A DNA stretch of 64,000 nucleotides from an uncultured Gammaproteobacteria bacterium (GCA_964450885.1 CAYVFE010000001.1:65301-129300), one strand, 5' to 3'. Counted from the stretch's first letter, positions 29,825 to 48,388 are shown. Notes: generated by a model from the letters alone, not told the origin. Translations and numbers: made by a program.

Positions 29825-29827
29825 TGT

Positions 29828-30394
29828 TTATTGAAGCCATTGCTCGGCCATCTCTCTTTCATAGGCCCTGTCTCCCCACGAGATATAGATTCTTGATGTA
29901 TCTGCTCCCTTTGATTCAAGCCAGTTTAGAACGAGCCCTGCAGCCTCGATAAAAGAATCTCTGTTTAGTTGGTACTGAGGATCGTCATCAGTTGTCCTGT
30001 AATCAACACCAGTGATATAAACTGTCAGTATCCATGGAGTATTCTCCAGTAGGTTGTCAGGAATAGAAATATCAATTAGTAGACCTGTCGATAGCGTATG
30101 GGAGGAAAAGTAGGGGAGGTGCTCCTTGATCTTTTCAAGTTCGGTAATTGACGCCTGTATTGCCTGATCTTCAAGGTCTGCCCCTCCACCTTCCTCGACG
30201 GGTTTTACTGGAATACTTTCAACTTTTTCAGGAAGTTTCTCACCAATATCTCTAATAGGTGAAAGTGTGGGCGTCGGTATGTTGGGCTGAGTAACAGGGG
30301 AGAGGGTTTTTACAATATTTGAAATCATAAAAATAACAAATATAATTCCTAGACAGATTACAATAAAAGCGATTATTAGTTGTTTTTTGCCCAT
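29828..30394 (-). CDS. membrane-anchored hypothetical protein
   Basis: 188 aa, N-terminal TM then an acidic ectodomain. Confidence 0.4.
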   Translation of the reverse strand: MGKKQLIIAFIVICLGIIFVIFMISNIVKTLSPVTQPNIPTPTLSPIRDIGEKLPEKVESIPVKPVEEGGGADLEDQAIQASITELEKIKEHLPYFSSHTLSTGLLIDISIPDNLLENTPWILTVYITGVDYRTTDDDPQYQLNRDSFIEAAGLVLNWLESKGADTSRIYISWGDRAYEREMAEQWLQ

Positions 30395-30398
30395 ATTA

Positions 30399-31652: not shown

Positions 31653-33927
31653 TGTTCAATCCACCAACTCCTGTGTTTTGGTGGCCAGGGTTACTAACCT
31701 GCTGCACGTTTTGAGCTGTACCATTGGACACGTTGGAGCCGCTCGTGGCAGCTGGTTTGGCAAAGTAATTTTCGGACGCATGGTTTTGTGTTTGAAATTG
31801 ACCCTGCGATTCATTGATATTTATCTCAGTTCCTTGCGCCATGGCAGGAGCCGTGGGGGTCATTGAAGCTTGTGGCATAGGTGGGACAGTAGGCGTCTGG
31901 GCAGCAGGTTGCATCACTACAGGTGTCTGCTGGACAGGGGGCGTAGACGGATTTTGATTGATCTGAGTGTTGGGCTGCTGCATCATTTGGCCAGTGTCTG
32001 GCGTCATCGGCTCCGGTTCTGTGGGAGTAGGAGGTATGGAGGCTTCGCTTTGCTGCTCTAAAATGTCTTGTGGTTTTGAGGTTATCAGGTCGTATTCGAA
32101 TTGGGAAGAAATGAATTGTGCAGTGACGTGATTCTGTCCCGCAAACAGAAGTCCCTCTCCCACCTGCGCTGTGAGCAGATACTGTTTTTCTCCTCCAGAT
32201 AGATTTAACGTCTTTGCGAGGGTCTCTACCTCGGAAGATCCCTGTTTCAAAAGTATTTGTATAGAAGAATTCGAAAGAATAGCTTTGCCATAGTCACTTC
32301 CGAGAAAGTCTTCGATGTCTTGTGTTAGAGTTGTTACTCCCAAATAGTATTTTCTAGCCCTTTTCGCGATCCCCTGTAGGAAGGCTGCAGAATCGGGATA
32401 GCGCATCATGTACCAGGCCTCGTCAACTACAAGTATCCTTTTCTTTAGTTTTGTTCTAACTCTTGACCATACGAAGTCCAGAATGACGTGCATAGCGATA
32501 GGACGTAGGACGTCTTCCAGCTGGCGGAGAGAAAAGACAGTCATCTTATTCTGAACATCGTAATTTGTTTGTTGATTAAATAATCCCGCGAAACCTCCCT
32601 TTACATACTTTTCGAGTCTAAATGCGAGCTCTTTTGCCTCCGATTCTTCCATGTTAAGAAGCGTTTTGTATAGATCTTCTAGGATCGGTGGTTCATTCTT
32701 GTATGTTGATGGGTCTGGTGTGATGCCTTTTTGTTTGTAGGACAGGACAAGCGCCCTGTCCATTATGGCTTCTTGCGTTGCGCTCATTTCTCCAAGCATG
32801 GTTTTTAGCAGTCCATGAATAGACAGGATTTTCAAGCTTAGCTGATTTTCGGACACGTCGTCAGAAAGAAGCGCGAAGGGGTTTATTTTTACCTCAGAGT
32901 CTTTTGAGAATGTGATATATTCTCCTCCCAGAGAGTCGCAAAGCGCCTTGTATTCGTCCTCAGGGTCAATGATAATAATTTCTGTGTCAAACATATACTG
33001 GCGCATGAGCTCGAGCTTGACGAGGAAAGATTTTCCAGATCCGGACTTTCCAAATACCACCTCGTTGGCATTTTCCAGAGAAAATCTGTCTACTATAACA
33101 AGCGAATTATTTAATGTGTTGACACCATACAAAATTCCATTCGGATGGGATATTTCGTAGCTCGTGAACGGAAAAGTAGACGCAACCGAGGTCGTATCCA
33201 TATTTCTTGTTATAAGAAGCTTGTCATCTCCTTTTGGAAGCGTTGTTTTGAAACCATCTTCCATTTGAAGCGTCGCGGGTTTTATGACTAGAAGGTTTGA
33301 CGCAAGAAGTGACGTCAGTTCTTTTGTCTTTAAGTTCAGTTCCTCAAGGTTATCTGCAGACAACGTCACGTAGAGCCCAAACTGAAAGAATCTTTCGAGT
33401 CCCCGTGCGAGTTCCTCTCTGAGTGCGACTGCATCTTCTAGAGACGCTTGAATTTTAGGATCTGGGACAATGCCGTTTTGCGCGTCAGATTGCAGCGTCG
33501 CCTCCATTTCCGCTATTTTTCGTCTTAGGTTCGACAGGACGTCCTTGCTTTCGACTGGATACAAAAACATAGAGATATTCATCGTTTCTTTATGGTCGAT
33601 AAGAATCGAAAGCCAGTTGGGGGATACCTGTCGAGGGTAGTCCACGACGAAAAACGTTCTATAGAATTTGTCACTAACCCTTATGTGTCTAAAGTCTACT
33701 TCGACGGATGATGGGGCTATTATGTCGACTATCGAAACAGAACCTTTTCTTAGCTCTTCCATGTGCTTTTGGGGTGCAGGCTTTTTTGCGCCCTTTTGTT
33801 GTGGTGGTGGAGCGGGTTGGGCAGGCGGTGTAGTCTGTCCTGGTTGTTGCGCAGGGGTAGCATTAGGTGCTTGTTGCTGATTTGGCACCTGTTGTTGTGG
33901 TTGTTTTTTATTTCCGATTCCAAACAT
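31642..33927 (-). CDS. VirB4/TrbE/CagE-family T4SS ATPase
   Basis: 761 aa. N-domain FFVVDYPRQV...WLSIL. Walker A GKSGSGKS, Walker B LVVDEAWYMM. Pro/Gln-rich low-complexity N- and C-tails. Confidence 0.8.
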   Translation of the reverse strand: MFGIGNKKQPQQQVPNQQQAPNATPAQQPGQTTPPAQPAPPPQQKGAKKPAPQKHMEELRKGSVSIVDIIAPSSVEVDFRHIRVSDKFYRTFFVVDYPRQVSPNWLSILIDHKETMNISMFLYPVESKDVLSNLRRKIAEMEATLQSDAQNGIVPDPKIQASLEDAVALREELARGLERFFQFGLYVTLSADNLEELNLKTKELTSLLASNLLVIKPATLQMEDGFKTTLPKGDDKLLITRNMDTTSVASTFPFTSYEISHPNGILYGVNTLNNSLVIVDRFSLENANEVVFGKSGSGKSFLVKLELMRQYMFDTEIIIIDPEDEYKALCDSLGGEYITFSKDSEVKINPFALLSDDVSENQLSLKILSIHGLLKTMLGEMSATQEAIMDRALVLSYKQKGITPDPSTYKNEPPILEDLYKTLLNMEESEAKELAFRLEKYVKGGFAGLFNQQTNYDVQNKMTVFSLRQLEDVLRPIAMHVILDFVWSRVRTKLKKRILVVDEAWYMMRYPDSAAFLQGIAKRARKYYLGVTTLTQDIEDFLGSDYGKAILSNSSIQILLKQGSSEVETLAKTLNLSGGEKQYLLTAQVGEGLLFAGQNHVTAQFISSQFEYDLITSKPQDILEQQSEASIPPTPTEPEPMTPDTGQMMQQPNTQINQNPSTPPVQQTPVVMQPAAQTPTVPPMPQASMTPTAPAMAQGTEININESQGQFQTQNHASENYFAKPAATSGSNVSNGTAQNVQQVSNPGHQNTGVGGLNNGR

Positions 33928-33928: not shown

Positions 33929-34567
33929 TTAGATTATTACGTTTTTTATATCTTTTGAATCAAAATTTAGATTTATTATGTCGTCGTTTAGGAGCTCATA
34001 AAACACTTTTATAAGTTCCTCGTGAGAAAGCTTTCTGGGAGCAAGCCCCATTCTTTCGATTTGCGACATTACAACGCTCGTCTTGGATAAAAGTGCTGCT
34101 TTTGCCTGATCCCCAAAATTAAGCTTCGCATTGGTCTTGTTGGGTTGAGCGGTGTTAGTTACCCCACCTTCCAGATAGGAGTAGGGAATGACGATATAGA
34201 TTTTTTTGTCCAAAAGTCCTTCTCCTTTAACAAGTTCCTGTATAAACTCCTTGTAGTACAGAAGGTGTTCTTTTATTTGGGGATGTTGGGTTGTTGAGAT
34301 TTTTTTGTCGAGATTGTCTATATAGCCTTCCATGTCGATTTTTTTCGAAACGATAAGTATCTGGATGGCAAAAGAAAGAGAATTGATAAGCGACATATAG
34401 CCATAGACTCTCGCGTTTTGCTCATCAGCAGACAGGAGGAAGAAGTTAACAGAAGACACGTCTATAAGCATGCACGCGCGTTTGTTTTTAAGCAGCACGA
34501 CATCGTCGACTATGTCAACAATTTCTGTGAAGCTTTGTGTTGTTGATTTTATATCTTTTTTCGCCAT
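33929..34567 (-). CDS. hypothetical protein resembling VirB4 N-terminal domain
   Basis: 212 aa. TQSFTEIVDIVDDVVLL...DVSSVNFFLLSADEQ parallels the VirB4 N-domain. Ends 1 nt before the VirB4 start. Confidence 0.4.
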   Translation of the reverse strand: MAKKDIKSTTQSFTEIVDIVDDVVLLKNKRACMLIDVSSVNFFLLSADEQNARVYGYMSLINSLSFAIQILIVSKKIDMEGYIDNLDKKISTTQHPQIKEHLLYYKEFIQELVKGEGLLDKKIYIVIPYSYLEGGVTNTAQPNKTNAKLNFGDQAKAALLSKTSVVMSQIERMGLAPRKLSHEELIKVFYELLNDDIINLNFDSKDIKNVII

Positions 34568-34569: not shown

Positions 34570-35670
34570 TTATTGCTGGACGGTGTTTCTGCCAAATAAT
34601 TCCTGTCTGAGCTTTTCTCTTTGATCGGTTGAGATAATTTCAAGTGGCTGGAATATTTCGTTATTCATTTCGATATCAATAGGGCTGAACTCATGAATGC
34701 GTCTGATGTCCTCAAGTAGTATCTGGTAGTTGCCTGCAGGAAGTGGTGTTGCAGATGAAAATTGCCCCAGTGCATTTGTCTTGAATGCTCTTACGGGGTT
34801 CCCTGTAGTATCGATGACCTCGACTATGATATTTGGTAAGACTTTCCCTCTTGCGTCTTTTACGATTCCCAGTACTACATTTGGGGTATCGGGAATCTGC
34901 GGGAAACCACTGGCGATCTGATTTTCTGGCGCGACAGATACTGCAGGAGTAGAGGGCATGCTGACAGTCTCTTGGGGGACAGGGATGGCTGGTGTTTCGA
35001 CTGGAGCAGGCATCGGTTGTTCTGCGACCGGTTCCTGAGCGGGCGCAGGTGTATATGCATCTGCCTTTATGGGCTCTGGGGAGCTGTGTGTTGGTGGTCT
35101 GACGATAACGCTTGGTTTTGTGTCCTCCTGAGGACTGCCAGTGTCGATGCTGCTCATCCCTGTGACTGGTGTCTGGGTATCATTGAATATTCCACTTATG
35201 GCATTTAGCTGGTCGCGTTCCTCCGCGTCAACTTTATAGGATGTGTTTTTTCTTACCAGCTGATTTAAGAGCAGTTGTTTCCTACTATCTTTTTGAGCAG
35301 GAGTGGGGCCGGCTGGAGCTTTCTGCATTTGCTGTGGGATGAAGTAGTCATGTAGGAGCGCTTCAGCACCTTTTTTCCGGAAGATATATCTGTTTTCTGC
35401 TGGTAATGCTTTCAAAAAGTTTATGAGCATAACATCCATTGGACGTCCTTCTATCGGCAGGAATGCAAGTCCTGCACCAAGTGACGCGATGACCATTATC
35501 GCTGGCCATTTGATCAGAAATGATATCGGCATGATGAAAAACACGCCACAAAGCGCCCCAGCTCCGAGGATGTACAGAAACTGTTTTACTGTAATTGAGC
35601 CTATGAGCCGAAATTTGAACCCAGTAACATCTTGAGGTATAGGATGATTTTCCATAAATAAGAGCACCAC
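34570..35670 (-). CDS. PrgI/VirB3-like membrane protein fused to Pro-rich linker and C-terminal domain
   Basis: N-terminus FKFRLIGSITVKQFLYILGAGALCGVFF with two TM segments, as in Gram-positive PrgI/TcpE. Pro/Ala-rich middle region. Confidence 0.45.
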   Translation of the reverse strand: MVLLFMENHPIPQDVTGFKFRLIGSITVKQFLYILGAGALCGVFFIMPISFLIKWPAIMVIASLGAGLAFLPIEGRPMDVMLINFLKALPAENRYIFRKKGAEALLHDYFIPQQMQKAPAGPTPAQKDSRKQLLLNQLVRKNTSYKVDAEERDQLNAISGIFNDTQTPVTGMSSIDTGSPQEDTKPSVIVRPPTHSSPEPIKADAYTPAPAQEPVAEQPMPAPVETPAIPVPQETVSMPSTPAVSVAPENQIASGFPQIPDTPNVVLGIVKDARGKVLPNIIVEVIDTTGNPVRAFKTNALGQFSSATPLPAGNYQILLEDIRRIHEFSPIDIEMNNEIFQPLEIISTDQREKLRQELFGRNTVQQ

Positions 35671-35771: not shown

Positions 35772-37865
35772 TTAAGTAGCTTTACCTATTCCGGTTGCAG
35801 CAACTCCTACAGCTCCAGCGCCAACTGTGGCCACAGCGCCAGCGCCTATAATAGCGATTAGAATATAGATGAGCCATTTCATCTTCGAGTCTGGTTTTAT
35901 CCCGGAGGCCTCAAGGTTCTTTAGGACATTTCCTGCTTCTTTGGATTTTGCCAGGCCGCTTGCGAGTTGTCCTCGGAAGTTTTCCTCAAGCATACGCCAC
36001 TCGTCTTTGCTGAGTCCAAGCTTGTCGCTTCCGGGTACCCAGCCCTTGAGTTTGTCTTTAAGAGTCTTTGAAGCAAAGAAGTCTTTCATGAGTTTATTTC
36101 TGTAAGTGTCTGCATGTTTGTTGTATGCGTCATCAAGCCTCTTTTTTTGCTCTTCAGTAAGCCTATTAAGGTCGATATTCTCATAAGTTTCCCTTTCATA
36201 AAGATCCTCGAAAGCGCCTGGGATTGGATTGCCGCTTGCGTCAAGCTTCGGGATTTGAAGCTGCATCTCACGCAGAAGCAGCCTTTTAAGTCCGTCTTCT
36301 CCTTTATACGCAATGGTGAGCATATCTTCTTGAATTCTCACCGTGCTTACCGATTTTGTTCTGGTCTCTCTGTCAAATTTAATCCAGTTTTCTCTCATCG
36401 ACTCAGCTATCGCCTTGTCATCGGCAGTAATTCCTTCCTTCGCGTCCTTTTCTCGTCCTTTCTCGTCAAGTTCAGCTAGTTGTTCGTAGCGTTTCAAGAG
36501 TACTTCCTGCGCTGATTCTGAGAAGATGTTCTCAACTTCGTCTACCAAATCAGATTCAGCTTGAAGCCTAGCGTTGCGGCTGTCTCTCTCGTTCGTATTT
36601 GGATTCGCTCTTTTATCCGCTATTATCGTGTCTAGTTCTCTAATTCTGACTTGATTTTGGTAAAGCTCAGCAAGCTTTGCGCCTATCTCAGAATTGGCGG
36701 CTCCTGCAGTAGGGTATCTTCTGTCAAAGTCGACGAATTTATCGTAATCGGGACGATTTTGATTTACTGTATTCATCAGAGCATCATATTCGTTGCTAAG
36801 AGTTTCGTATTGGGAATACAGCTTATTGGCGGCATCTACTGCTGCTTGATTCGGAATAGCGTTCTTGTTCATTGTTGTAGGGATTTTCCCCTGATTCCAT
36901 CGTGCAAACGCTTCGTCAGTCCGGTTTTTTAGTTCCGAAATTTTTGAGAACTCAGCGTAGTGGGGCACTTTTTCCACAGTCAATTGGCGAATCTGTCGAA
37001 GAATTTGTTCTGGGGTCGCTCCATTTCCTATCGCATCCTCGATAGCTTTTTTTTCAGCAGGGTCAAGCGGTTGTCCGGTATCCGTCTCGATAGATTTGAC
37101 TATCTGATCGACTCCTTCCTGAGCCTTTGTTTTTGCAGATTTCTGTTCTTTCTCGGCATTCTTTAACTCGTCATCTTTTGCGACTTCTGGCAGCGCTTCG
37201 GCGCGTGCTGACAGCTCTCTAAACTTTGTAGCGATTGTTGTTCTGAGGCCTATTTCCCTGCCCAGGGTTTTTTCGATATATTTCCTTTTGTATTCTGGAT
37301 GCATTGAGGGGTCTGCTAGTTCCGGGAAGAGCGATTTTATATATCCGCTTGAGAGTAAGGCATCAAGCCCGGCTATTCTCTGCCTATCATATTCAGCTGC
37401 GCTTTTGATACTTGTATCACCCCTGGCAACTCTCGATCGGATGGTATCTGGTATGCTGATTCCGGTTCTTTCCGATTCTGCCAGGATGCTTGAGTATTGT
37501 AGAAATGCAGATGCTTGCTCTGCAGCTCTTTTTGCTCTTTCAAAGGACGCCTTTTCTGCAGGAGTTGCATTTGCTTTCGCTTCGACGAGATGGGTTGCTG
37601 GATTCTCTTCGGTTTCCCCAGCTCCGAATTTTAGCTCAAATGCATTTAGCTGAAGTCTACCAAAAGACGTCTCCCTCGTAGTTTCTGATGCCATTTGGAG
37701 ACCTTCTTTACCGCTCTTTCCATCTTTACGGAGCTGTTCTAAGTCCTTTTGGCGTTGAAGCTGCTCTGGGGTTATGCCTGGGAGATTTACGCTAGTGTCT
37801 CCCGCCTGCAGGACTTCTTTTGGTGTAAATTTTGGCGCTTCGGGCGCTGATGTTGCATCCGGCAT
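35772..37865 (-). CDS. long coiled-coil, C-terminally tail-anchored protein
   Basis: 697 aa, helical and charged, with a single C-terminal TM (WLIYILIAIIGAGAVATVGAGAVGVAATGIG). Confidence 0.45.
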   Translation of the reverse strand: MPDATSAPEAPKFTPKEVLQAGDTSVNLPGITPEQLQRQKDLEQLRKDGKSGKEGLQMASETTRETSFGRLQLNAFELKFGAGETEENPATHLVEAKANATPAEKASFERAKRAAEQASAFLQYSSILAESERTGISIPDTIRSRVARGDTSIKSAAEYDRQRIAGLDALLSSGYIKSLFPELADPSMHPEYKRKYIEKTLGREIGLRTTIATKFRELSARAEALPEVAKDDELKNAEKEQKSAKTKAQEGVDQIVKSIETDTGQPLDPAEKKAIEDAIGNGATPEQILRQIRQLTVEKVPHYAEFSKISELKNRTDEAFARWNQGKIPTTMNKNAIPNQAAVDAANKLYSQYETLSNEYDALMNTVNQNRPDYDKFVDFDRRYPTAGAANSEIGAKLAELYQNQVRIRELDTIIADKRANPNTNERDSRNARLQAESDLVDEVENIFSESAQEVLLKRYEQLAELDEKGREKDAKEGITADDKAIAESMRENWIKFDRETRTKSVSTVRIQEDMLTIAYKGEDGLKRLLLREMQLQIPKLDASGNPIPGAFEDLYERETYENIDLNRLTEEQKKRLDDAYNKHADTYRNKLMKDFFASKTLKDKLKGWVPGSDKLGLSKDEWRMLEENFRGQLASGLAKSKEAGNVLKNLEASGIKPDSKMKWLIYILIAIIGAGAVATVGAGAVGVAATGIGKAT

Positions 37866-37866
37866 A

Positions 37867-38241
37867 TTAGATTGAGTTCAGTTTTTCTCTTGTCGCATCA
37901 AGCGTGCTGGCTTCTTGTTTTTGAGTATCATTATCTTTGTATTTCAGATAAGTATCCTTGTAGACGGGCCATCTGTTTGCCAGGTCTTGCAAGAAAAATA
38001 ACATCGAATCTTCGCTATCTATCTTGTCCAGGGACTCAAGTATAAACTCTGCTGAGAATTGAGAGTCTTCATGTGAGAGGGTGCTTGTTTGAAGACCGGT
38101 AAGTAGAGCGTCATAGAGTTCGTTATAGAGATTATTCTTTTGTTCTTCCGAAACGCTGGTATTGTCCATATATAAACAATACGTCAAATCTAGTGGTTGT
38201 GTCAACGAATTAGAACGTAGGGTTGGTGATCTGACCGACAC
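37867..38241 (-). CDS. hypothetical acidic protein
   Basis: 124-aa ORF. Its 1-nt gap to the gene at 35772-37865 is seen; co-transcription with its neighbours is inferred. Confidence 0.35.
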   Translation of the reverse strand: MSVRSPTLRSNSLTQPLDLTYCLYMDNTSVSEEQKNNLYNELYDALLTGLQTSTLSHEDSQFSAEFILESLDKIDSEDSMLFFLQDLANRWPVYKDTYLKYKDNDTQKQEASTLDATREKLNSI

Positions 38242-38506
38242 CAGTGACTGATGCTATCAGATTGAGAATCGCAAAAGACAGTAGTATAAGAAGAAGTCCG
38301 ATTATCGCATAGGTAAGAGTTTTTTTAGCATTGTCTACCTCCTGTGGGTCACCTTTACTGGTCACGAACTTGAACCCCGCAAAGATTATAAGAAAGAGAG
38401 CGACGACGCCCGCAAAGATAAGCGCCCATTGTACGACATTTTTTATGACTATCGGAACACATCTGAGTGTGGCGACATCGCCTTCAAGACAGGAAGCCCA
38501 TTCCAT
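38210..38506 (-). CDS. T4SS pilin-like (VirB2/TrbC-like) protein, paralog 1
   Basis: 98 aa, two hydrophobic helices flanking GDPQEVDNAKK, then IIGLLLILLSFAILN. Confidence 0.55.
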   Translation of the reverse strand: MEWASCLEGDVATLRCVPIVIKNVVQWALIFAGVVALFLIIFAGFKFVTSKGDPQEVDNAKKTLTYAIIGLLLILLSFAILNLIASVTGVGQITNPTF

Positions 38507-38515
38507 ATAGAGTTA

Positions 38516-38944
38516 TTATTGTATTAATTCGTCGAGACGAGGCAGTGTTAGATTTGTAAGTCCTCCTTCTACTCCAAAAACTGTGAGCAGTACATTTAGG
38601 ATGAAGAAGGAAAGAAAGACTACAACAAGCCCTATGACGGCTGCGATTATCTGATTTCTTGCGGCTTCTACTTTAGAAGAATCTCCAGAAGATGTAATCC
38701 ATTTGATACCGCCTATTATAAGCCAGAGTAGAGCGATTATGACAGCTATGACGAAAAAGACTATGACTATGGCACCTATTACTGCGCCGAAATTCCCGTC
38801 ATTTATTTGACAGACGATATCGAACTGTCCGCCGGGGCAAAGGTTGATTGATGATCCTCCTGGAGGGGTTGAGGTCTGAGCATACGCAAGCTTCGGAAAA
38901 AGAAAGTATAACGGTGAAGAAAGGAGAGCAAATAGTCTTTTCAT
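38516..38944 (-). CDS. T4SS pilin-like protein with signal peptide, paralog 2
   Basis: 142 aa. Signal peptide ...KLAYA-Q, Cys-containing head, then SSGDSSKVEAARNQIIAAVIGLVVVFLSFFILN. Confidence 0.6.
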   Translation of the reverse strand: MKRLFALLSSPLYFLFPKLAYAQTSTPPGGSSINLCPGGQFDIVCQINDGNFGAVIGAIVIVFFVIAVIIALLWLIIGGIKWITSSGDSSKVEAARNQIIAAVIGLVVVFLSFFILNVLLTVFGVEGGLTNLTLPRLDELIQ

Positions 38945-38990
38945 AAGGTCTTATTAATTGTTATCAGCTTTTATTTCCTTTGTCAAGAAG

Positions 38991-39308
38991 TTATATGAAT
39001 TTGATGCCAAATATTCCGCCGAGGATGTTTATTATCGCAAACGCAAGAAGGGCAACTATCAGTCCCAAAACCGCAAAGATTATCTGTTTTCTCGCCTCAT
39101 CTACTCTTTGAGGGTCACCATTCGACTGAATCCAGCGGATCCCAGCCCAGATAAGATATCCGAGAGAGGCGAGGATCACGACTATCAAAAAAATCTGCAT
39201 TCCTACAGAGATTATCGTCTCAAGAGTATTTGCACCTCCGCCGGGAACGCCATCTGGGGCTTTCACCTCTCCATATCCTGGAATTTGTAGTTGTGCAAGC
39301 TGTTTCAT
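38991..39308 (-). CDS. T4SS pilin-like protein, paralog 3
   Basis: 105 aa with NGDPQRVDEARKQIIFAVLGLIVALLAFAIIN, the same motif family. Confidence 0.6.
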   Translation of the reverse strand: MKQLAQLQIPGYGEVKAPDGVPGGGANTLETIISVGMQIFLIVVILASLGYLIWAGIRWIQSNGDPQRVDEARKQIIFAVLGLIVALLAFAIINILGGIFGIKFI

Positions 39309-39311
39309 ATT

Positions 39312-40850
39312 TTATGGATTTGGCGGAGGAAACTCTATGTCGGAAACTGTTTCATCATCGACCATATCTACGCTCGTTTCATTTGTATTCTCCGGTTCGT
39401 TAAATCCAGGTATTTGTAGTATATCACCTGCGATAACTTGAAGAATAACGAATGAGAAAATGATAAAAAGTAGACCTATTATTGCAGCTGTGATAATCTC
39501 GCGGGCATGTTTTATCTTTTCGGGATCGCCGCGTGAAACCATGTAGTTATATCCACCGTATATTATAAGAAGCAGGGCAGCCACCCCTGCTATAGAGAGC
39601 ACATATGTGAAGATGCTAAGTACGAATTCGTCTAGGTCAAGCCCTATCGTACCCAGCGCGGTTTCAATCTTTGCGCAGTCGGCAGGATTTGTTACATCGT
39701 TTTCTCTTCCTGGTAATTGATGAAGAGGATCAGGGACGGCACCATCCTTTAGCTCGGCGCACGGGAGTCTGGTACCACCGCTAGAGAGCCCCAGTTCCAC
39801 GAAAAGCTGCGCCATGGAATTTAGATCTTTTCCCTCAGGATCTATTATGGGATCTCCACACACATTTGCTGTAGGGTCACTTCCTGGTATTCCGACATGA
39901 CAGTGAATTTCTGCGTAGACGAACCCCCCAAGACAGTCATCGTAGTTATGGGATTCATTTATCTGCTCACGAAGCCTAATTACATAATCTCCAGCTAGAG
40001 TAACCCCCTCTTCATCCGTCGGGAATACTTTTGTGACCTGTTCTCCTGGAGCCGAGAAGCTTATGCATGACTGGTTGTTTCCTGGATTTAGAATAGCTTG
40101 ATGTAAGACATCATTTCTCATCCCCGGTCCGTCTACGATGATCTGGTAGTTATTCCTATTCTTTTTATCGCCATTTCCGTTATTGCGGATTTTGGGAGAC
40201 GATACATTAACTGTGAATTTTCCACCAGGAGTAAGATTATTGCTGGGGCTTACCGTCATCTCGGGCACTCCATGATTTACAAAAAACCCCGCTACTGTAT
40301 GGAGTATGAATACATCGCCTGCCTTCTGATAAAGAGAGAGGAGATAGACACTGCCTGGATAAAAATAGTCTTTGTCGTTATTTTCACCGTTTTCGTCTCC
40401 TGCGCACTCCTTGCTTCCATTTCCATTAGTAAATCTTTCGGGGGTCTTTAATTTTGAGTCTCCGTCTCCACAGACTATGATGGTCTTGGATTCGTCGTCG
40501 AATTTATAGCGTTGAAGAGTTTTCTCGTCGACCTGGTCGTCTGTGAGTCCGCGTGTAGCTTGTCCTACGTACTCCAGGTTGCCTTCAAATATCCCATCTT
40601 TTACGTCATCATCGTCTATACATAAATCCTGTTCCATACATATATATAGATCGTTAACACTTAGGGAATCGATGAGGTCTCCTTGGAAGGTGACACTTAC
40701 TGTGCTCAGGTAGTCATTTATTTCCTCGAGAGGAGGCTTCACTGTAAAAGTTGATTCCTGAGCATGGGAATTATTCGGAAATAGGAGAAATAGAGAAAAA
40801 AGCGCGAAAAATAAAACAATAAGCCTTCTTGTCATATTCCTATCATACAC
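39312..40850 (-). CDS. large secreted Cys/Asp/Gly-rich ectodomain fused to C-terminal T4SS pilin-like domain (candidate tip adhesin or minor pilin)
   Basis: 512 aa with a signal peptide and a roughly 400-aa ectodomain. C-terminus ...SRGDPEKIKHAREIITAAIIGLLFIIFSFVILQ is the pilin motif. Confidence 0.55.
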   Translation of the reverse strand: MYDRNMTRRLIVLFFALFSLFLLFPNNSHAQESTFTVKPPLEEINDYLSTVSVTFQGDLIDSLSVNDLYICMEQDLCIDDDDVKDGIFEGNLEYVGQATRGLTDDQVDEKTLQRYKFDDESKTIIVCGDGDSKLKTPERFTNGNGSKECAGDENGENNDKDYFYPGSVYLLSLYQKAGDVFILHTVAGFFVNHGVPEMTVSPSNNLTPGGKFTVNVSSPKIRNNGNGDKKNRNNYQIIVDGPGMRNDVLHQAILNPGNNQSCISFSAPGEQVTKVFPTDEEGVTLAGDYVIRLREQINESHNYDDCLGGFVYAEIHCHVGIPGSDPTANVCGDPIIDPEGKDLNSMAQLFVELGLSSGGTRLPCAELKDGAVPDPLHQLPGRENDVTNPADCAKIETALGTIGLDLDEFVLSIFTYVLSIAGVAALLLIIYGGYNYMVSRGDPEKIKHAREIITAAIIGLLFIIFSFVILQVIAGDILQIPGFNEPENTNETSVDMVDDETVSDIEFPPPNP

Positions 40851-40874: not shown

Positions 40875-42200
40875 CTACGAACTAAGCTTATAGCCAGTGC
40901 CTTTTATGGTTTTGATGAATGTAGGATTTGCAGGATCAGTTTCAATCTTTTTTCTGAGCCTGTGCATTATCTGATCAAAAGCCTGATCACTGACGCCTTC
41001 CTGGGTCTTCTGGTCCGTCCACACGGCATTTATGAGCTCGTTTTTACTGAGTACCTTGTCTTTATTCTCAAGCATAAATTTTAAGAGCTTAAATTCTGAC
41101 GATGAAAGTAATTGGGTGATCGGATTGTTTGCCTTAAGGATTTCATTTCTCTGGGCATCGTACTTAATCGATTCGTCGACATCGATTTTTTTGCTTTCGA
41201 TAAAGTCTACAAGTAGGGGAATCGACAGTTTTTTTCCTACCACAAGACCTGTTTTTGTGAGATATTTTTCTGAAAGGTTCTCAAAATCTTTATTTTTCAA
41301 TGCCAGCTTTTCGCTGGGAAGCAGGCTTTGCCAGACTTCACCTAGGGCACTTATTATAGTAGGCTTATCGAGGAGATATTTTTTAATGTCAGTTATTTTC
41401 TCGTCTTCCGTGACAAATTTTTCGTAAGCAAGCTTTGTCAGCTTTGAATGCCCCCCTGTTAGGTCCAGAATTTTTTCTGCGGTATCCTTTCCTAGAGACT
41501 TTCTGGACATCTTTTCTATGTATTTTGTCCTAAAGGAGATTGCGATAGGATCATAAATTGCGATATAGATTTCATTTCCTGTAACTATATCTGAAAAATC
41601 AGTAAGTATGTTTATGTCCACGGTTTCATCGAGCGGCCTTTTAAGTGAAAATATGGCTCCAAATCTATACTTTGCCAGATTCCTAAAAGTCTTAAGGTTG
41701 GCAAAGAAGTCTTCGGTCAGGTTAGGTGCGATCGTGTCAAACCTATCAAAGAGCAGGATCAGTGAGAGTTTTTTTTCGATAGTCAGAAATTCAATCGCTT
41801 TTTTTAAGAACTGCATCATCAGAAATTCGTCATTCATCGAGATTGCTTCTTGAAGAAGGGATCTTACCTTCGTGGACTCCTCCAAAAGTTGCCTTTCGCT
41901 CAAAGAAAATGCGATGGAAGAAAAGATGAGTTTTATTATGTCTATGTGATCTCTTCCCTTTGCCTCTGCTGAGTCTATATAGACAAAATGCATCAATTTC
42001 TCGTACGTTTTCAAGTGATATTTTCTGGCGTCTGTGTTGTATGCGAGGAGTCTGAGGAGGTTGTTTTTCCCCGTTCCCGGAAGTCCTATGATTTGCGCAG
42101 AAAGCCCTTTTTTAAGAAAGGTCAGATATTGGTGAATCTCTTTTTCGCGGGAATTTTCAGGATATAACGATTCAAAGTATTTTAGTGGTGTAAGTGTCAT
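40875..42200 (-). CDS. P-loop ATPase fused to C-terminal OmpR/PhoB-type winged-helix DNA-binding domain
   Basis: Walker A-like GLPGTGKNN near the N-terminus. C-terminal trans_reg_C pattern (ELINAVW...DQIMHRLRKKIE...IKTIKGTGYKL). Confidence 0.6.
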   Translation of the reverse strand: MTLTPLKYFESLYPENSREKEIHQYLTFLKKGLSAQIIGLPGTGKNNLLRLLAYNTDARKYHLKTYEKLMHFVYIDSAEAKGRDHIDIIKLIFSSIAFSLSERQLLEESTKVRSLLQEAISMNDEFLMMQFLKKAIEFLTIEKKLSLILLFDRFDTIAPNLTEDFFANLKTFRNLAKYRFGAIFSLKRPLDETVDINILTDFSDIVTGNEIYIAIYDPIAISFRTKYIEKMSRKSLGKDTAEKILDLTGGHSKLTKLAYEKFVTEDEKITDIKKYLLDKPTIISALGEVWQSLLPSEKLALKNKDFENLSEKYLTKTGLVVGKKLSIPLLVDFIESKKIDVDESIKYDAQRNEILKANNPITQLLSSSEFKLLKFMLENKDKVLSKNELINAVWTDQKTQEGVSDQAFDQIMHRLRKKIETDPANPTFIKTIKGTGYKLSS

Positions 42201-42346
42201 GTAAATATAGTATCACGCAAAATCCATTTGTAAGGCAAGTGTTAGATAGACGTCAAGATGATTATAGCTTCATAGTTTATATTGATCACATTATGGAGCG
42301 ATTGACACGTACGCACACGCTGGCATATCCTTTAGAAAGGAGCATT

Positions 42347-45300
42347 ATGGAAACAGGAAATGAAAGAGGGGGAGTACCCCAATCTAGCGACAAGAATAAC
42401 AAGTCAACAAATCTTGAGGCTTCAAAATCCCGGATGGAGCGGATGGTGGATCGTTTTAAAAAAGATAACGAAAAAACTCCGAGTGGGAACGGCAGCCTAA
42501 GAGATAAAGATGAGAATAAGTCTGCAGAAAGACCTTCGTCTGCTACTGTTGGGACAAGTAAGAGTGGTTTTAATCCCGAAAGGTTTAAAGAAAATCCATA
42601 TTTGCATGTGTTGGCGATGAGGGTAAGGGCCGCGGAGCAGGAGGGGAGAATCGACAACAAATTTCTCGATGAGCTTCGGCAGCAGACATACGAAGGAGTG
42701 GGAGAAGGAAGAATTTCGGATAACTGGGCATTTCAGTTCATCAGGGATATAGATAGAAATTATGTTGTGAATGCCAGCATCCAAAAAGAACACGATGACT
42801 CCAAAGAGCTCTCAAAAGATATAGAGGCGATAGTTGAGCAGAGAAAACAAAGAAGGCTTACTGCAGAGGAAATCGAGGCAAGTCGCGTCGCGCTGGAGAG
42901 CGCGTTCGGAAGAAAGCTTACGACATCCGAGCTTGATCGCGTAACAAGAGGTTCAAAAATCACTGAGAGCGGGAGGAATGCAGAAGCCTTTGGGGCTCAA
43001 ATCCAGACGATCGAAAAGCTTGTGGATAACCCTGATAGATTTGCGGCCTTCGAGTCTTCTCTGTCATCCCAAAGTCCGGATCAATTAAAAAGATTGCTAG
43101 GCGGAGATGGCGGGAGGCTGGTGCTGGGAGCATTACTTGGTGATATAGCTGAGAGGAGTAAGTATTTCCAAAGACTTGAGGAGATATTGAGCAAAGATCA
43201 GGCAGGGATGAAGGACGGATTGATTGCCTTATCAAGAGATATAAAAAGAGATGAGCAGGCAGCAAAACCTAAGGTCGACCCAGAAAAAGCAAGGCTTGCA
43301 AGAGAGCAGGCAGAGAAGTGGATTGAGGAGCAGAGGAAAAAACGTCAGGTTACGGCTGAGGAAGTAGATGCGATTCTCGCGAATGCGGAGAGGGGTGTAG
43401 GGCTTATTATGGGAGGCTCCGACTATAACGAGAACGCGGCAAATATAATGGAGCAGGTTGATATGATTTCAGATGAGACTGGGGAGGCTTTCACCAGAGC
43501 GAGGGACCTTTTAGTCGACGACGATTTGGTGAATGTTTTGGCAGAAGAAATATATGGAGTCGATCTTCCAAATATCAGGGCTGAAAAAAGTAAATTTCTT
43601 GATCTTAAAAATATCGATGACCCAGCAGTATTCAAGTCTCGTTACAAAAGTCTTCTTTCAGATCTACTAGCCAGGGCAAACACGGCAGCATCCGACCCAA
43701 GACGTTTGGAGGAAAGAGTGCAGGCTCAAAAAGACGCTGAGGAATTCACTGCAACGGGCGAGAAGACAAAGGGAGGGAAGACCTTTAATTTGCGAGGCCT
43801 TGAAGAAATAGTCAATAGCATATCACCGCCGCGTCCGGGAGAGCGTCCATTCTTTGAGCGCGAGCCCCGAAATATTAAAGAGGTTGCAGCATGGATTATG
43901 GCAGGGGATGATAGAAGCATTTGGGGGCCGGACGGGAGATATCCGATATTTAGCTGGGGTGAGGGGATAAATCCAGAAACAGAAGCAAGAAACGTTGATT
44001 TTCATGCCCAGAACTTAATACTCTGGCTACGCAATAAGTCTTTGGAGCATCATGCCGATAATCCTAACGACCCGCTAAATCTACTACAAGGAGTTGCGAT
44101 AGAGACTCTCTATAAATCGATAAGCATACTCACGATGAAGTATAACAAGCAAAAGTATTTTGCCGACGAAGAGGGCCGCCCGTTATCAAACCTTGCGGAC
44201 GAAGTCATAAATGAGGCTTGGCTTTTTGGAACCAGAAGAAACAAAAACCTTGGTTATATCCAGGCGATGAATAGCGACGAGAAGTTGTTTGAGGCGATAG
44301 TTGAGCTTAGTGGTAAAAATGATCATACAAACGGTAAGACTTTGTCTGGTCACCTTCAGATGGGTGAGAACTTTAGCGATACGGAAGGCAATGAGGACAA
44401 TAAGGTGGGGGATGCGATGCTGGCTGCAAATCTTATATATAGAAACCTTTCTGATATAGAAAAGCTAAGAGAGGTTTTGCCCGAAGGGTCGCAGATGTTA
44501 ACGCTTGAAGGTTTTAAAAAAGCTTCAAGATATTTGAATGAAGAAGGTTTTTCAGAAGACACTAATGGTTATGGAAACCTAAAGATAGAAGGAAATAGGG
44601 TTTATTTTCTGAATCCACAAACTAAGGTTAGGACGGAGATATTTAATAACGACGGAAAGCTTGTAAGTGATGCAAATCTTATAAAGTTTTTGAACTTCTT
44701 TCCGGAGGCAACTCCTCAAGAGACGAATGAGGCATTTGTGAGAGAGCTTGTCAAGCAAAGTATCGCAGGCATGGTTGGGTTTGATTCTGGAATGGAAAGC
44801 GAAAAATACGAGGAATTTATCGCGGAGCGCAAGGAGGCGCTCGGTAACGCTTATAAAGATATAAGCATTGCGGATTATAGGAAGATTCAGAGGATGAATC
44901 TTGAGTGGGCGGAGACGAATTCGTGGGTGGAGCAGCGATGGAATGGAGCTGCAGCCAGAAACGATACAGGATATAGGGGTTATGATGCGTGGACGAAGAT
45001 GTATGCGCAGTATTACCGCGAGCGTCAGTCTGGGGAGGGAACCGCTGGTCCTATCGGTAATCCCCATGATCTGCAGATATTTCGTCTCCTAACGCCCGAT
45101 ATGTGGCTTGCGATACGTACAGAATCCGGAGAGTCCGTCCAGGAAGTCTTTGAAGAGCTTCACATGCACAATCTTAAGCTATATCAACTTGGTCCGGAGC
45201 AAAAAAATGAAAGGGAAGCTATAGAAAATAAAAAGAAAAAAGTATACGAGAAGTTAAAATTTCCTCGGTGGACGGAGTCTGACTGGGCTGCAAACGGAGT

Positions 45301-46099
45301 CAAGCGTCAGGCAGAGGTTTGGCACAATATAATGAACACTGAGGATCTAAAGTTCAACGAGCTTGTGAAAAGAGACAACTGGGGAATACTAAGATATGAC
45401 AGACAGAAATTTGAAGAAGTCGTAAAGGACGACTTTATAAAAAAACGACGCTACGCTTTTTCATCTAATAACGCCATAAATTATGGAGCGGTGACGCGCA
45501 TGAGGGTAAGAAGCAGCTCAGATAAGGCTATAGACGGTTTTGAATTTAAGGATATGTATGTTGGAGAAGCTATGTTCGGAGAGGTAGTGATGGGATCTAT
45601 CAGACGGGATTGGTTCGATGGTAATCTGCAGTACGATGCAGCAGATGAGAATGGGATGGCTGTTAAAAAGAGTGCCCCTAAAAAGGGTGAGAAGTTCGAT
45701 CCAAAAAAACATGGAACTTTTCAGGAATATCTCAACTCGCGCTCCGGTAGGGGAAAGATACTCAAGAATGTATGTAGGGCGGGAATCGCTGCGCAGATTA
45801 ATGCGCATAGACAGCATACGGGCACCACTGAGAGATGGGATGCTGAAACGATTAGAAATCTTTTAGAGTCATTACATACAATGCCACAGTATGAGGAGGA
45901 CCCTGTTACAGGAGTAGAGGTAAAAAACGAACACGCTCAGTTCTTTTCCAAGGAAGACATAAAGTGGATAAGACAGCAGACAAGAACAACCAAGGGGTGG
46001 CTTATATTTGAGGATGCGAGGCATATTGGTTGGGATGCAGCAGCAGAGGGAATTCCAGAGATGTTCAAGATATTCTTCAAGGATGTTCTCTCTTCCTAA
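42347..46099 (+). CDS. very large (about 1250 aa) charged hypothetical protein, candidate secreted substrate
   Basis: Only long plus-strand gene in the locus. No TM or signal peptide. RBS GAAAGGAG before the ATG at 42347. The track ORF starts at 42194 and overlaps the neighbour's start. Confidence 0.5.
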   Translation: METGNERGGVPQSSDKNNKSTNLEASKSRMERMVDRFKKDNEKTPSGNGSLRDKDENKSAERPSSATVGTSKSGFNPERFKENPYLHVLAMRVRAAEQEGRIDNKFLDELRQQTYEGVGEGRISDNWAFQFIRDIDRNYVVNASIQKEHDDSKELSKDIEAIVEQRKQRRLTAEEIEASRVALESAFGRKLTTSELDRVTRGSKITESGRNAEAFGAQIQTIEKLVDNPDRFAAFESSLSSQSPDQLKRLLGGDGGRLVLGALLGDIAERSKYFQRLEEILSKDQAGMKDGLIALSRDIKRDEQAAKPKVDPEKARLAREQAEKWIEEQRKKRQVTAEEVDAILANAERGVGLIMGGSDYNENAANIMEQVDMISDETGEAFTRARDLLVDDDLVNVLAEEIYGVDLPNIRAEKSKFLDLKNIDDPAVFKSRYKSLLSDLLARANTAASDPRRLEERVQAQKDAEEFTATGEKTKGGKTFNLRGLEEIVNSISPPRPGERPFFEREPRNIKEVAAWIMAGDDRSIWGPDGRYPIFSWGEGINPETEARNVDFHAQNLILWLRNKSLEHHADNPNDPLNLLQGVAIETLYKSISILTMKYNKQKYFADEEGRPLSNLADEVINEAWLFGTRRNKNLGYIQAMNSDEKLFEAIVELSGKNDHTNGKTLSGHLQMGENFSDTEGNEDNKVGDAMLAANLIYRNLSDIEKLREVLPEGSQMLTLEGFKKASRYLNEEGFSEDTNGYGNLKIEGNRVYFLNPQTKVRTEIFNNDGKLVSDANLIKFLNFFPEATPQETNEAFVRELVKQSIAGMVGFDSGMESEKYEEFIAERKEALGNAYKDISIADYRKIQRMNLEWAETNSWVEQRWNGAAARNDTGYRGYDAWTKMYAQYYRERQSGEGTAGPIGNPHDLQIFRLLTPDMWLAIRTESGESVQEVFEELHMHNLKLYQLGPEQKNEREAIENKKKKVYEKLKFPRWTESDWAANGVKRQAEVWHNIMNTEDLKFNELVKRDNWGILRYDRQKFEEVVKDDFIKKRRYAFSSNNAINYGAVTRMRVRSSSDKAIDGFEFKDMYVGEAMFGEVVMGSIRRDWFDGNLQYDAADENGMAVKKSAPKKGEKFDPKKHGTFQEYLNSRSGRGKILKNVCRAGIAAQINAHRQHTGTTERWDAETIRNLLESLHTMPQYEEDPVTGVEVKNEHAQFFSKEDIKWIRQQTRTTKGWLIFEDARHIGWDAAAEGIPEMFKIFFKDVLSS

Positions 46100-46114: not shown

Positions 46115-48388
46115 TTACGAACTACTAGTCCGTTCCCTTAAGTTATTTATTGCTTCTAGTCTTATATTAGTTCTTTCTTCATCTGACATGTTCGTTAGTC
46201 CTCGATCATTCTTAATTATTTCTACTTCGTTTGTAATTTCCTCCTCAGTAAAAGCAGATGGAGCAGGTCCGCCTGTTGTTGGGGGCGTTGCAGGCCCACC
46301 TGTGGATGGGTTTCCAGATGCTATTCCAGAGCCTAGCGCAGACCCTTTCCTATTTTTAATAAGTTGTGGGAGTGGTGTACTTAACACTCGTTGAAATCTT
46401 GATAGACGACTTCCCCCTCCAGTTGGAGAGCCACCTGATGGGGGTGGAGTACCGCCGGATGGAGGAGTGGAAGACCCTCCTTCGTCATCTCCCGGTTCTT
46501 CTGGTTTCGGATTATTTCTTTCTGCCTCAGCCAGTAATATAGCTTTTCTCTCTTCGGATTTTTCACGCCTTTTCTTTCTTGCTTCGGGAGTGCTAAATTT
46601 ATCTCGCAGCTTGTTAAGAGTTGGGATTTTTTCCATTCTTTCAGTAAACTTTTCCCCACTCCATGCCTTTAGTCTTCCAGACTCACCAGTATGAGGATTG
46701 GTGTACCATAATGATTTTCTTATTCCTCCGAATGCTCCTCCGACTACTCCGCTTCCTACGCCCAAAGACTTGCCCATGCCACCAATAAGTCCTCCTGTAT
46801 CGGGAGCCTTTAATGCGCTTTTCACGATATTAAGTGCCTCAGGCATTATGAGTACTACTCCAAGCCCTATGATTGAGGCGAACCCCGAGGCTGGGTTGTC
46901 TCCAAGCTCACCCACGAATGGCGGGATAAGTATTTCTTGAGGAGAAGAAAAGGCCTGTTCCTGAATAGATTTACCTATTAGAAAAAGGAGTAGTACTGTC
47001 GGGAATGCTGCGAGATTTGCGATTATCATTCTTAGCCAGGAGCCAATCCCCCCTCCAACTCCAGGAAGAATGCCGGCAAGTATCCAAAATGGAGCAAATA
47101 TCGTCCCTACGAGGACCATGATAAATGCCTTAATAAGCATTATCCATGTCCGAAATAGTGCGGAAAGCACCGCGATAAGTATAACAAGGTATGCTATCAG
47201 AAATGCGACTAGTTTTATGAAGCTTCCAGCAGTAGCAACACCTATTGCTCCGCCAGCTGCACCTCCGACAAGGCTTCCGATAGTTGATCCTGCAAGTGCT
47301 CCAGATCCTACACCAGCACTTACTGCCATAATAGCAGGAATTAACGCTAGACTAGCTCCTCCTGTGGGGAGGGCTAAGAAAGCAGCTACGCCTCCCAAGA
47401 CAAGTCCGCCAATGCCTCCTAGTAGCTTTCCTATCCCGGCGCCGGCTGACCCGCCGATAATTCCTCCTAATGCCTTAGTAAGGAAGTTCCCGAGTCCACC
47501 ACCAAGATTACCGTCAAATATTCCGCCTAGCGCATTTCCAGCGCCCGTCGCTACAGGTTCTGTTATCGCGTTTATTCCACCTAAACCTCCAACCGCATTT
47601 ATGGGGTTAGTATCTATGCTAGGGATAGTTGCAAGTGCTCTTGAGTCAAAGATATTTATGATCAGATACATAAGCACATACATAGTGTCGACCAAAAAAC
47701 CGACTATCGCATACGAAAGAGTGATGAGAACGAGCGCTACAATTATCCGAGGCAGTTGGTTCTGGATTGTCATGACGCTCCTTGCGTCCAGATTTAGTCT
47801 GAACATGATCCCCAGTCCCAGGACGATAAACACTATTAGAAATAGAAAATACGTAATATCTCTAAATACTTCCCAAAGTTTCAGTATGGGCTTCAATCCC
47901 GCAAACCCGACACCCTGAGCATATGCATTCTGAGAGATGCCAAAATTTTCAGCAAGGTAGCCTCCATAGTGAGTTGAAGAAAGTGGGATATTGTAGGTTG
48001 CTCCAATCATATCTCCCGCGACCGCAATAAGCCCTCCATCAGGCTCAGCGTAACCGAGCTTTTTTGTGACGGGATTTACCCCAAGGCATCTACCGTCTAT
48101 GCTGAGTGGGTTAAATCCTGCCATAAAACACGATCCTGCTCCAAGGATTTCTATAAAGACACTCTGGGTATAGGTCGATAAGTTTTGCGGCACATCAGGC
48201 TCTGTGTTAAGAGGCAGCTGTTGCGGATTTTGAATTTGAGCACCCTGAGCTTCTTGTAGATTTTGGTTTTGAATAATTTCATTTGCGGAGGATGAGGATT
48301 CTGCCTGAGCAAATACAGACGACGAAGAAAAATATAGGAAGAACAGGGCACCTAATATAATAAATAAAAATTGCGATAATTTTTTCAT
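46115..48388 (-). CDS. VirB6/TrbL-like polytopic membrane protein
   Basis: 757 aa. Signal peptide, multiple TM helices, Gly-rich stretches, C-terminal Pro/Gly-rich tail. Confidence 0.5.
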   Translation of the reverse strand: MKKLSQFLFIILGALFFLYFSSSSVFAQAESSSSANEIIQNQNLQEAQGAQIQNPQQLPLNTEPDVPQNLSTYTQSVFIEILGAGSCFMAGFNPLSIDGRCLGVNPVTKKLGYAEPDGGLIAVAGDMIGATYNIPLSSTHYGGYLAENFGISQNAYAQGVGFAGLKPILKLWEVFRDITYFLFLIVFIVLGLGIMFRLNLDARSVMTIQNQLPRIIVALVLITLSYAIVGFLVDTMYVLMYLIINIFDSRALATIPSIDTNPINAVGGLGGINAITEPVATGAGNALGGIFDGNLGGGLGNFLTKALGGIIGGSAGAGIGKLLGGIGGLVLGGVAAFLALPTGGASLALIPAIMAVSAGVGSGALAGSTIGSLVGGAAGGAIGVATAGSFIKLVAFLIAYLVILIAVLSALFRTWIMLIKAFIMVLVGTIFAPFWILAGILPGVGGGIGSWLRMIIANLAAFPTVLLLFLIGKSIQEQAFSSPQEILIPPFVGELGDNPASGFASIIGLGVVLIMPEALNIVKSALKAPDTGGLIGGMGKSLGVGSGVVGGAFGGIRKSLWYTNPHTGESGRLKAWSGEKFTERMEKIPTLNKLRDKFSTPEARKKRREKSEERKAILLAEAERNNPKPEEPGDDEGGSSTPPSGGTPPPSGGSPTGGGSRLSRFQRVLSTPLPQLIKNRKGSALGSGIASGNPSTGGPATPPTTGGPAPSAFTEEEITNEVEIIKNDRGLTNMSDEERTNIRLEAINNLRERTSSS

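Follow-up and report, generated by a model that had tools for sequence, protein, structure and literature searches.

A fixed four-class cassette of pilin-like genes, one with a large beta-rich head, in an origin-proximal type IV secretion cluster of probable Levybacteria origin

Patescibacteria make up a large fraction of bacterial diversity, and the members that have been studied live attached to host cells. Here, we analyzed a 64,000-nucleotide stretch of DNA (the window; GCA_964450885.1 CAYVFE010000001.1:65301-129300), in which four consecutive genes encode pilin-like proteins next to type IV secretion system (T4SS) genes. The closest described systems are the origin-proximal, MPF_FATA-like T4SSs of Patescibacteria (Quinonero-Coronel et al., 2025; PMC12102498), in which VirB2-like pilins were detected using the models PF18895 and PF04956. 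In that work, two or more PF18895 or PF04956 genes of a Patescibacteria genome, in tandem or one gene apart, counted as an array if they lay close to virB4; 441 such arrays, each with 2-11 pilin genes, were found, enriched in Microgenomatia and Saccharimonadia, with an average identity of 25% among array paralogues, and the arrays were suggested, by analogy with Bartonella and Anaplasma, to serve antigenic or host-range variation (PMC12102498). In the one genetically tractable species, Southlakia epibionticum, genes of the T4SS, among them a predicted pilin series, are essential (Wang et al., 2023; PMC10633639), and high expression of PF18895 proteins is reported from other Patescibacteria (PMC10936435), yet the recent literature describes the role of the Patescibacterial T4SS as completely unknown and reports that no PrgB-like adhesin was detected in its clusters.

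An earlier examination of the DNA (the sequence-only reading) had described four tandem paralogous pilin-like genes, and the open reading frames (ORFs) were present as described, all on the minus strand. In the direction of transcription they encode a two-domain pilin of 512 amino acids (aa) (class 1; 39312-40850), followed by short pilins of 105 aa (class 2; 38991-39308), 142 aa (class 3; 38516-38944) and 98 aa (class 4; 38210-38506), separated by gaps of 3, 46 and 9 nt. PF18895 (T4SS_pilin; gathering cut-off 26.6 bits) matched all four above its cut-off, with 36.0 bits (at residues 408-473), 35.5 bits, 39.3 bits and 47.1 bits for classes 1 to 4, respectively (E 2.6e-12 to 1e-8). A hidden Markov model (HMM) built from 33 modules and run on all six frames of the window matched only these four ORFs, with E-values of 1e-30 to 1e-35. 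Because the PF18895 matches pass the cut-off and the 33-module HMM recovers these four ORFs and no others, the four-gene observation is real and lies far beyond a chance pattern. With four adjacent PF18895 genes 4.3 kb from virB4, the locus is also an array by the published definition.

The C-terminal modules of the four proteins were aligned, as the sequence-only reading had proposed, and gave 35-37% identity to the first sequence with 12 invariant columns. In each protein two hydrophobic helices flank a charged turn, S-x-G-D-(P/S)-x-x-(V/I)-x-x-A-(R/K). The turn was shared as claimed, but the (S/N)GDP motif first given for it was amended, since it is a Ser, two positions ahead of Gly, that never varies, and the residue immediately preceding GD is variable (K/S/N/R). 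Upstream of the module the short proteins differ. The class 2 protein, assigned by positional orthology, starts 3 nt past the class 1 stop, has no signal peptide, and carries the motif MKxLLSLxIPG...APxGIPTGG before helix 1. The class 3 protein, assigned from its hydrophobic segments, Cys positions and the class alignment, has a Sec signal peptide (ending in LAYA, before Q) and two conserved Cys (C36 and C45), followed by the module. The class 4 protein has no signal peptide and begins with the class-wide motif MxWxxCLxxGVATLxCIP, containing two conserved Cys (C6 and C16), before a module that was modeled with AlphaFold2 (AF2) as a hairpin of helices 12-49 and 54-88. A signal peptide and two Cys residues had been assigned to one protein of the set; this description holds for the 142-aa protein, but the 512-aa protein also has a signal peptide (NSHA, followed by QE) and the 98-aa protein also has two conserved Cys. 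Among homologues, P0025 (474 aa) contains three tandem pilin modules and P0095 contains two, as natural pilin-pilin fusions or merged gene calls.

Eighty related Levybacteria/Microgenomatia loci from species-representative genomes were annotated using our own HMM and phmmer. The order in these loci was a membrane protein gene (x757), a gene on the opposite strand (x1301), a regulator gene, a large pilin (383-647 aa), and pilins of ~110, ~138 and ~104 aa, followed by an optional variable insert, PrgI, a TrsD-like gene, VirB4, further genes, and then dnaN/dnaA. Exactly four pilin ORFs were present in 60 of the 80 loci, and exactly one large pilin in 69. For the orthology test, 45 loci with a clean 1+3 cassette were used together with the window (184 modules). 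Module identity at the same position across genomes was 0.53, 0.38, 0.46 and 0.48 for classes 1 to 4, versus 0.26-0.33 between positions, and the nearest neighbor of a module occupied the same position in 182 of 184 cases. The class signatures, which differ in length, signal-peptide status, Cys pattern and C-terminal motif, are kept across the lineage; in class 1, a signal peptide and the head are followed by a Cys-x4-TAIG junction, then by the module and by IPGF as the C-terminal motif. Because nearest neighbors are nearly always of the same class and the signatures are class-specific, the four genes are, as judged from these alignments, ancient paralogues with separate roles and not recent variants.

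The locus resembles the published Patescibacterial arrays (PMC12102498), including SEML1_0014-0019 of S. epibionticum (PMC10633639), in that its PF18895 genes lie in tandem near virB4 and PrgI and close to dnaA/dnaN, with no relaxase or coupling protein nearby, and in that such arrays are enriched in Microgenomatia, the class to which the window is assigned. It differs in that the arrays were described as 2-11 small variable pilins, whereas the lineage of the window carries a fixed four-class cassette. All six S. epibionticum array pilins are ~190 aa or smaller, whereas the first member of the window cassette has a ~360-aa head; on this comparison, the head-bearing class is a feature of the cassette of this lineage and not of all Patescibacterial arrays. 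The array itself is known biology, the exact large protein is present in public databases, and one of its homologues is already named "pilin". Three features appear to be undescribed in the searchable literature text, in which no description of a head-pilin fusion was found: the fixed set of four classes that are orthologous by position, the class of pilins with a hypervariable FN3/Ig-like head, and a link to Mycoplasma elements, given below.

The public annotation of the 512-aa ORF starts at M6 (ATG at 40835) and gives a 507-aa protein; this is P0001, which is identical to the large window protein and sits on a 588-kb contig, a length in keeping with the small genomes that have been reported for Patescibacteria of this group. 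The ATG at 40835 is the probable start. On the minus strand, the protein is divided into a signal peptide (about 40758-40835), a head matching FN3/Ig-like beta-sandwiches (about 39678-40757), the pilin module with its two helices, SRGDP turn and IPGF motif (about 39417-39677), and an acidic disordered C-terminal tail (39315-39416). Within class 1, this tail (..TGvDRVDDGT..sElPP), which follows IPGF and is disordered in the model, was seen in a subset consisting of the window protein, P0002, P0007, P0009 and P0010. PF18895 has a precomputed match in all but two of 97 homologues of the large protein.

AlphaFold modeling of the large protein alone had been suggested, and the AF2 model, made with 36 full-length homologues, showed a beta-rich head and a C-terminal two-helix hairpin (mean predicted local distance difference test score 79.6, predicted template modeling score 0.65). 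It contains a signal-peptide helix, a beta-rich region at residues ~30-400, helices at 401-433 and 438-472 that form the hairpin, and the disordered acidic tail. The head (~360 aa) is rich in Gly, Asp and Asn and has a net charge of -32. The protein contains 10 Cys, equivalent to 2.7% of the head, so that "Cys-rich", the term used for the ectodomain, overstated its composition; of these Cys, five are conserved throughout an alignment of 36 full-length homologues, and another two in 33 or more of them. The head, of the disulfide type, was modeled as a string of FN3/Ig-like beta-sandwiches, an adhesion-type fold. The statement that the ectodomain has no recognizable homology was therefore correct for sequence families but not at the level of fold. 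An enzymatic head was considered and rejected, as no catalytic fold was among the matches listed and tandem FN3/Ig-like beta-sandwiches were found instead; the ectodomain is also not a housekeeping enzyme, an identity that would have told against the sequence-only reading.

The head alone was searched against 1.84 billion representative proteins (E <= 1e-3). Only 66 representatives were related, of which 62 include the pilin module. The remainder consists of two truncated fragments and of two giant repeat proteins whose local matches are marginal, and the head is joined to the module in every complete representative. Inside this family, mean identity was 0.33 for the head versus 0.64 for the junction and module, and head length ranged from 290 to 544 aa. 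Heads occupying the same slot in the 80 loci fell into 32 BLAST clusters. Iterated profiles reached just the first ~60-105 positions (the signal peptide and first subdomain) in most other heads, and 16 heads, with 4-35 Cys, were not recovered by any profile. The homologues were 28-39% identical, so that synonymous sites are saturated. As far as sequence comparison reaches, the slot and the anchor are conserved and the head is fast-evolving or replaced.

The reading that we favor, with a probability of about one half, is that the four genes supply the pilins of a monoderm-type (MPF_FATA-like) T4SS, chromosomal and near the origin, whose large class displays a host-binding head. That the proteins are pilin-like components of a type IV secretion apparatus, as the sequence-only reading proposed, is borne out by PF18895, by the Mycoplasma model NF045849 and by rigid synteny with PrgI/VirB3, TrsD-like and VirB4 genes. 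In the membrane, each protein would have its two termini facing out and its turn facing in, a topology that is forced for two of the proteins because they carry signal peptides; classes 1 and 3 would enter via Sec, and for classes 2 and 4 insertion as short-tailed hairpins is proposed. Extraction of the pilins would be the work of the VirB4 motor together with VirB3 and the TrsD-like protein, which would stack them to give a filament or a short stalk on the cell surface. Its shaft would consist of the three short classes, one of them the major pilin and the others adaptors or minor subunits, and the large class would dock by its pilin module and show its head outward as the host-binding element. 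If incorporated first, the large class would end at the tip, a location that we consider doubtful. Since the literature reports that PrgB-like adhesins went undetected in the T4SS clusters of Patescibacteria, the role of adhesin is unfilled.

The proposal that the large protein is a pilus-tip adhesin and specificity determinant is plausible: the module and its slot are conserved, the head on it evolves fast or is replaced and has an adhesion-type fold, and head and module are fused in all complete representatives. By analogy, a head that diverges on a module that is conserved fits a FimH-like two-domain adhesin-pilin. FimH/PapG of chaperone-usher pili, GspK, CofB and TcpB of type II secretion systems and type IV pili, and the tip pilins of sortase pili likewise fuse a receptor-binding head to a pilin domain that plugs into the fiber; these systems also encode a few minor pilins, as a fixed set, along with the major pilin, and the head evolves faster than the pilin domain. 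The likeness is one of analogy only, however, since there is no relationship between the folds, between the assembly machines or between the pilin domains, and the pilin part of the window protein is C-terminal and a membrane hairpin, with the tip location only proposed. More tentatively, it is possible that the large protein is the first two-domain adhesin on a VirB2-type T4SS pilin module, that is, a FimH-like tip subunit whose interchangeable head sets the host cell; under this tentative proposal the three short classes would be a fixed major-plus-minor set and would resemble the priming complexes that minor pilins form in type IV pili and type II secretion systems.

Several points count against the favored reading. 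Sequence homology to VirB2, TraA or TrbC was undetectable using Pfam, PDB profile and hhalign comparisons: PF04956 (TrbC/VirB2) matched none of the four modules; a search of the 33-module profile against the PDB returned no solved VirB2/TraA/TrbC pilin, the best E-value being 0.19 for an unrelated protein; and hhalign of the module profile gave 0.4% with A. tumefaciens VirB2 and 0.1% with F TraA, a weak test in which single target sequences were used. A TrbC match on the 512-aa protein (21.3 bits, cut-off 27.9) was rejected, as it covers residues 6-52, the signal peptide. Structural matches to the hairpin were non-significant (Foldseek E >= 0.89); the best-covering match was the Aeropyrum pernix conjugation pilin 8dfu, and generic designed hairpins scored equally. 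The positive-inside charge bias expected for a turn-inside topology was weak. Among the four modules, conservation is highest in class 1 (0.53), which also fits a role inside the machine, and the fast divergence of the head could reflect weak constraint and not host-driven diversification. The literature reports no pilus for any Patescibacterial T4SS, monoderm T4SSs being normally without pili; both the filament and the placement of the large protein in it or at its tip are proposals.

The VirB2/TrbC-type architecture named in the sequence-only reading is only indirectly supported. Gene context, topology and the Saccharibacteria array pilins speak for it, as S. epibionticum SEML1_0018 and SEML1_0019 match PF18895 and PF04956 over the same residues, whereas the PF04956, profile and hhalign comparisons were negative. 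VirB2 of the T-pilus, TraA of the F-pilus, TrbC, and the archaeal Ced/conjugation pilins (8dfu) are, like the window modules as modeled, small hydrophobic two-helix hairpins with a short polar turn, predicted to have both N and C termini outside and encoded beside VirB3 and VirB4. The window proteins differ from them in lacking detectable sequence similarity and in carrying a signal peptide in just two of four cases. Canonical conjugative systems have one major pilin, whereas the lineage of the window has four fixed classes in a monoderm cell and encodes no VirB5-type tip protein.

The NCBIfam model NF045849 describes the Mbov_0395 family pilin-like conjugal transfer protein of Mycoplasma integrative and conjugative elements (ICEs). 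Its cut-off of 40 bits was passed by the 98-aa protein (42.8 bits) and the 105-aa protein (43.2 bits), with the 142-aa (32.6 bits) and 512-aa (31.8 bits) proteins scoring below it. Both systems are monoderm and MPF_FATA-type with VirB4 and TrsD-like partners; the Mycoplasma proteins, however, belong to mobile conjugative elements, whereas the window cluster is chromosomal and origin-proximal with no relaxase nearby. We know of no head-bearing member in the Mycoplasma family. Because two proteins pass this model, the pilin-like subunits may be part of a monoderm MPF_FATA heritage. The match bears on the origin of the pilins, for which the alternative in the literature is that Patescibacterial pilins were borrowed from diderm systems, and, as MPF_FATA elements of Tenericutes accordingly seem to possess a homologous subunit of the pilin type, at the level of sequence it qualifies the published statement that the MPF_FATA class is without VirB2-like pilins (PMC12102498).

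A first alternative, which we regard as somewhat unlikely, is that the PF18895 hairpin is a C-terminal two-helix membrane anchor, perhaps recognized by the T4SS, in which case the large protein would be a surface adhesin seated in the cytoplasmic membrane, the short proteins would be small membrane subunits of the T4SS channel, and no filament would exist. The lack of any reported Patescibacterial T4SS pilus, the pilus-free condition of monoderm T4SSs and the undetectable homology to VirB2 are all in keeping with an anchor, as is the presence of PF18895 modules at the C termini of many unrelated large ectodomains (e.g., PKD and CARDB), where an anchor or sorting domain would be expected. A plain anchor, however, has no need of four conserved classes in fixed order tied to VirB3/VirB4. 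Moreover, the turn and both helices carry cross-class motifs and the class 1 module is conserved at 0.64, implying specific protein-protein packing, and the pilin series is essential in Saccharibacteria.

Alternatively, the large protein could be an envelope-spanning stalk or cap and not an adhesin, its chain of beta-sandwiches spanning the wall or S-layer as a stand-in for VirB5-, VirB9- or VirB10-like parts. We consider this unlikely. Pfam scans found no VirB5, VirB9 or VirB10 homologues in the cluster, the class 1 module is the best conserved of the four, and an N-terminal subdomain of ~100 residues was recovered by profile in many otherwise divergent heads, all of which would suit such a part. 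A core component should be conserved, though, yet most of the head is replaced or unrecognizable between species, with the 290-544 aa spread of head lengths within the family and 4-35 Cys among the heads that no profile recovered.

It is very unlikely that the four genes are interchangeable variants of a major pilin that provide antigenic or host-range variation, the explanation suggested by the authors of the array survey (PMC12102498). The low identity among paralogues, here as in the survey, agrees with this suggestion, but positional orthology counts against it: recent diversifying duplicates would group by genome and not by position, whereas the positions are old orthologous classes, each distinguished by its length, by whether it has a signal peptide, by its Cys pattern and by its C-terminal motif. 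Recent duplication for antigenic variation was therefore largely refuted by the assignment of 182 of 184 modules to their own position, and the reported essentiality of the S. epibionticum pilin series argues against redundancy. Membership of another pilus family (PilD-processed type IV, Flp/Tad or sortase pilins), for which nothing in favor was found, has a negligible likelihood, as the class III signal peptide motif G|(F/M)xxxE occurs in 0 of 184 cassette pilins, one of them matches the Flp pattern G/xxxxEY by chance, no LPXTG motif or lipobox occurs in the four window proteins, and the hydrophobic module is a C-terminal hairpin and not an N-terminal single helix; a type IV or Flp identity of the shared motif, which would have undone the sequence-only reading, was thus not found.

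A fixed four-class cassette implies four distinct subunits and predicts a heteromeric fiber or stalk. The head-bearing pilin is a concrete, testable candidate for host recognition by an epibiont and overturns nothing; in the more tentative proposal of a tip adhesin, an interchangeable FN3/Ig-like head would decide which host cell a Levybacterium attaches to and feeds from.

Named homologues of the large protein came from metagenome-assembled genomes (MAGs) of Candidatus Levybacteria, Levyibacteriota, Microgenomates and "Patescibacteria group". Because the homologues are from these groups, the cluster probably belongs to a Levybacteria-type Patescibacterium (an ultra-small bacterium) of the Microgenomatia. 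L004-L012 and many other MAG records of the lineage are titled "uncultured Gammaproteobacteria bacterium", which looks like a labeling error in the deposits.

The window is chromosomal; it holds dnaA, dnaN, a tmRNA, tRNAs and a class II ribonucleotide reductase. On the minus strand, as are the pilins, the genes for the PrgI/VirB3-like, TrsD-like and VirB4 proteins lie 2.5-6.5 kb downstream of them, an arrangement kept in related loci. The first (34570-35670; PF12666 30.8 bits, cut-off 27; syntenic) encodes a PrgI/VirB3-like membrane protein with an extra CarboxypepD_reg-like domain, the second (33929-34567; NF041427 6e-5 and NF045975 1.8e-9, both below cut-off; syntenic) a TrsD-like protein resembling the N-terminal domain of VirB4, and the third (31642-33927; PF19044 1.2e-36, PF12846 7.3e-13) a VirB4-type ATPase, the signature motor of T4SSs. 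Four distal genes on the same strand (28719-31652), x417 (bitopic), x188, x197 (signal peptide, 8 Cys) and x174, show partial synteny. Each encodes a small membrane-anchored or secreted protein; the group is located between VirB4 and dnaN, and dnaN and dnaA follow on the strand opposite to that of the T4SS cluster.

Between the pilins and PrgI is an insert (35772-38241, minus strand) that is absent, different or up to ~5 kb long among related loci. In the window it encodes x124 (37867-38241), which is soluble, and x697 (35772-37865), which according to a hydrophobicity scan is a long hydrophilic protein of 697 aa with a C-terminal membrane anchor; neither matched a family. On the other side, 24 nt upstream of the large pilin, a 441-aa protein (40875-42200, minus strand; PF00486 2.4e-20 and NCBIfam response-regulator C-domains) combines a P-loop N-domain (GLPGTGKN) with an OmpR/PhoB winged-helix C-domain and has no receiver domain. 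It is directly upstream in nearly all related loci and, from its domains and position, is probably a dedicated regulator of the cassette. Promoter-like sites occurred at chance level (24 found versus 24.0 expected).

Further upstream, x757 (46115-48388, minus strand) keeps its synteny with the cassette in most related loci. Its product carries a signal peptide, seven or more hydrophobic segments (residues ~178-522) in a hydrophobicity scan and a hydrophilic tail of ~230 aa, and had no Pfam match even at E <= 5. It may be a candidate for a divergent VirB6-like channel subunit, the "missing" VirB6 of Microgenomatia. The x757 homologue at L026 scores with the pilin-module HMM. The divergently transcribed neighbor of the regulator, x1301 (42194-46099, plus strand), encodes a 1301-aa soluble protein with no family match and no hydrophobic segment; its synteny is kept in many related loci, and a T4SS substrate is one possibility for it. 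Permissive Pfam scans of x757, x417, x188, x197, x174, x212, x697 and x1301 gave nothing usable.

The cumulative GC skew was lowest (about -0.35) at 24-28 kb, the site of dnaA and dnaN, consistent with a replication origin adjoining the T4SS cluster. An AdoCbl-II riboswitch (52288-52360, plus strand; 37.4 bits, gathering score 36.5) was located directly 3′ of the B12-dependent class II ribonucleotide reductase gene (49840-52245) and before unannotated ORFs at 52433-52987 and 52988-54109. A tRNA-Ile with anticodon UAU (ARAGORN "tat") was found at 60666-60739 on the minus strand, an uncommon bacterial way to read AUA codons.

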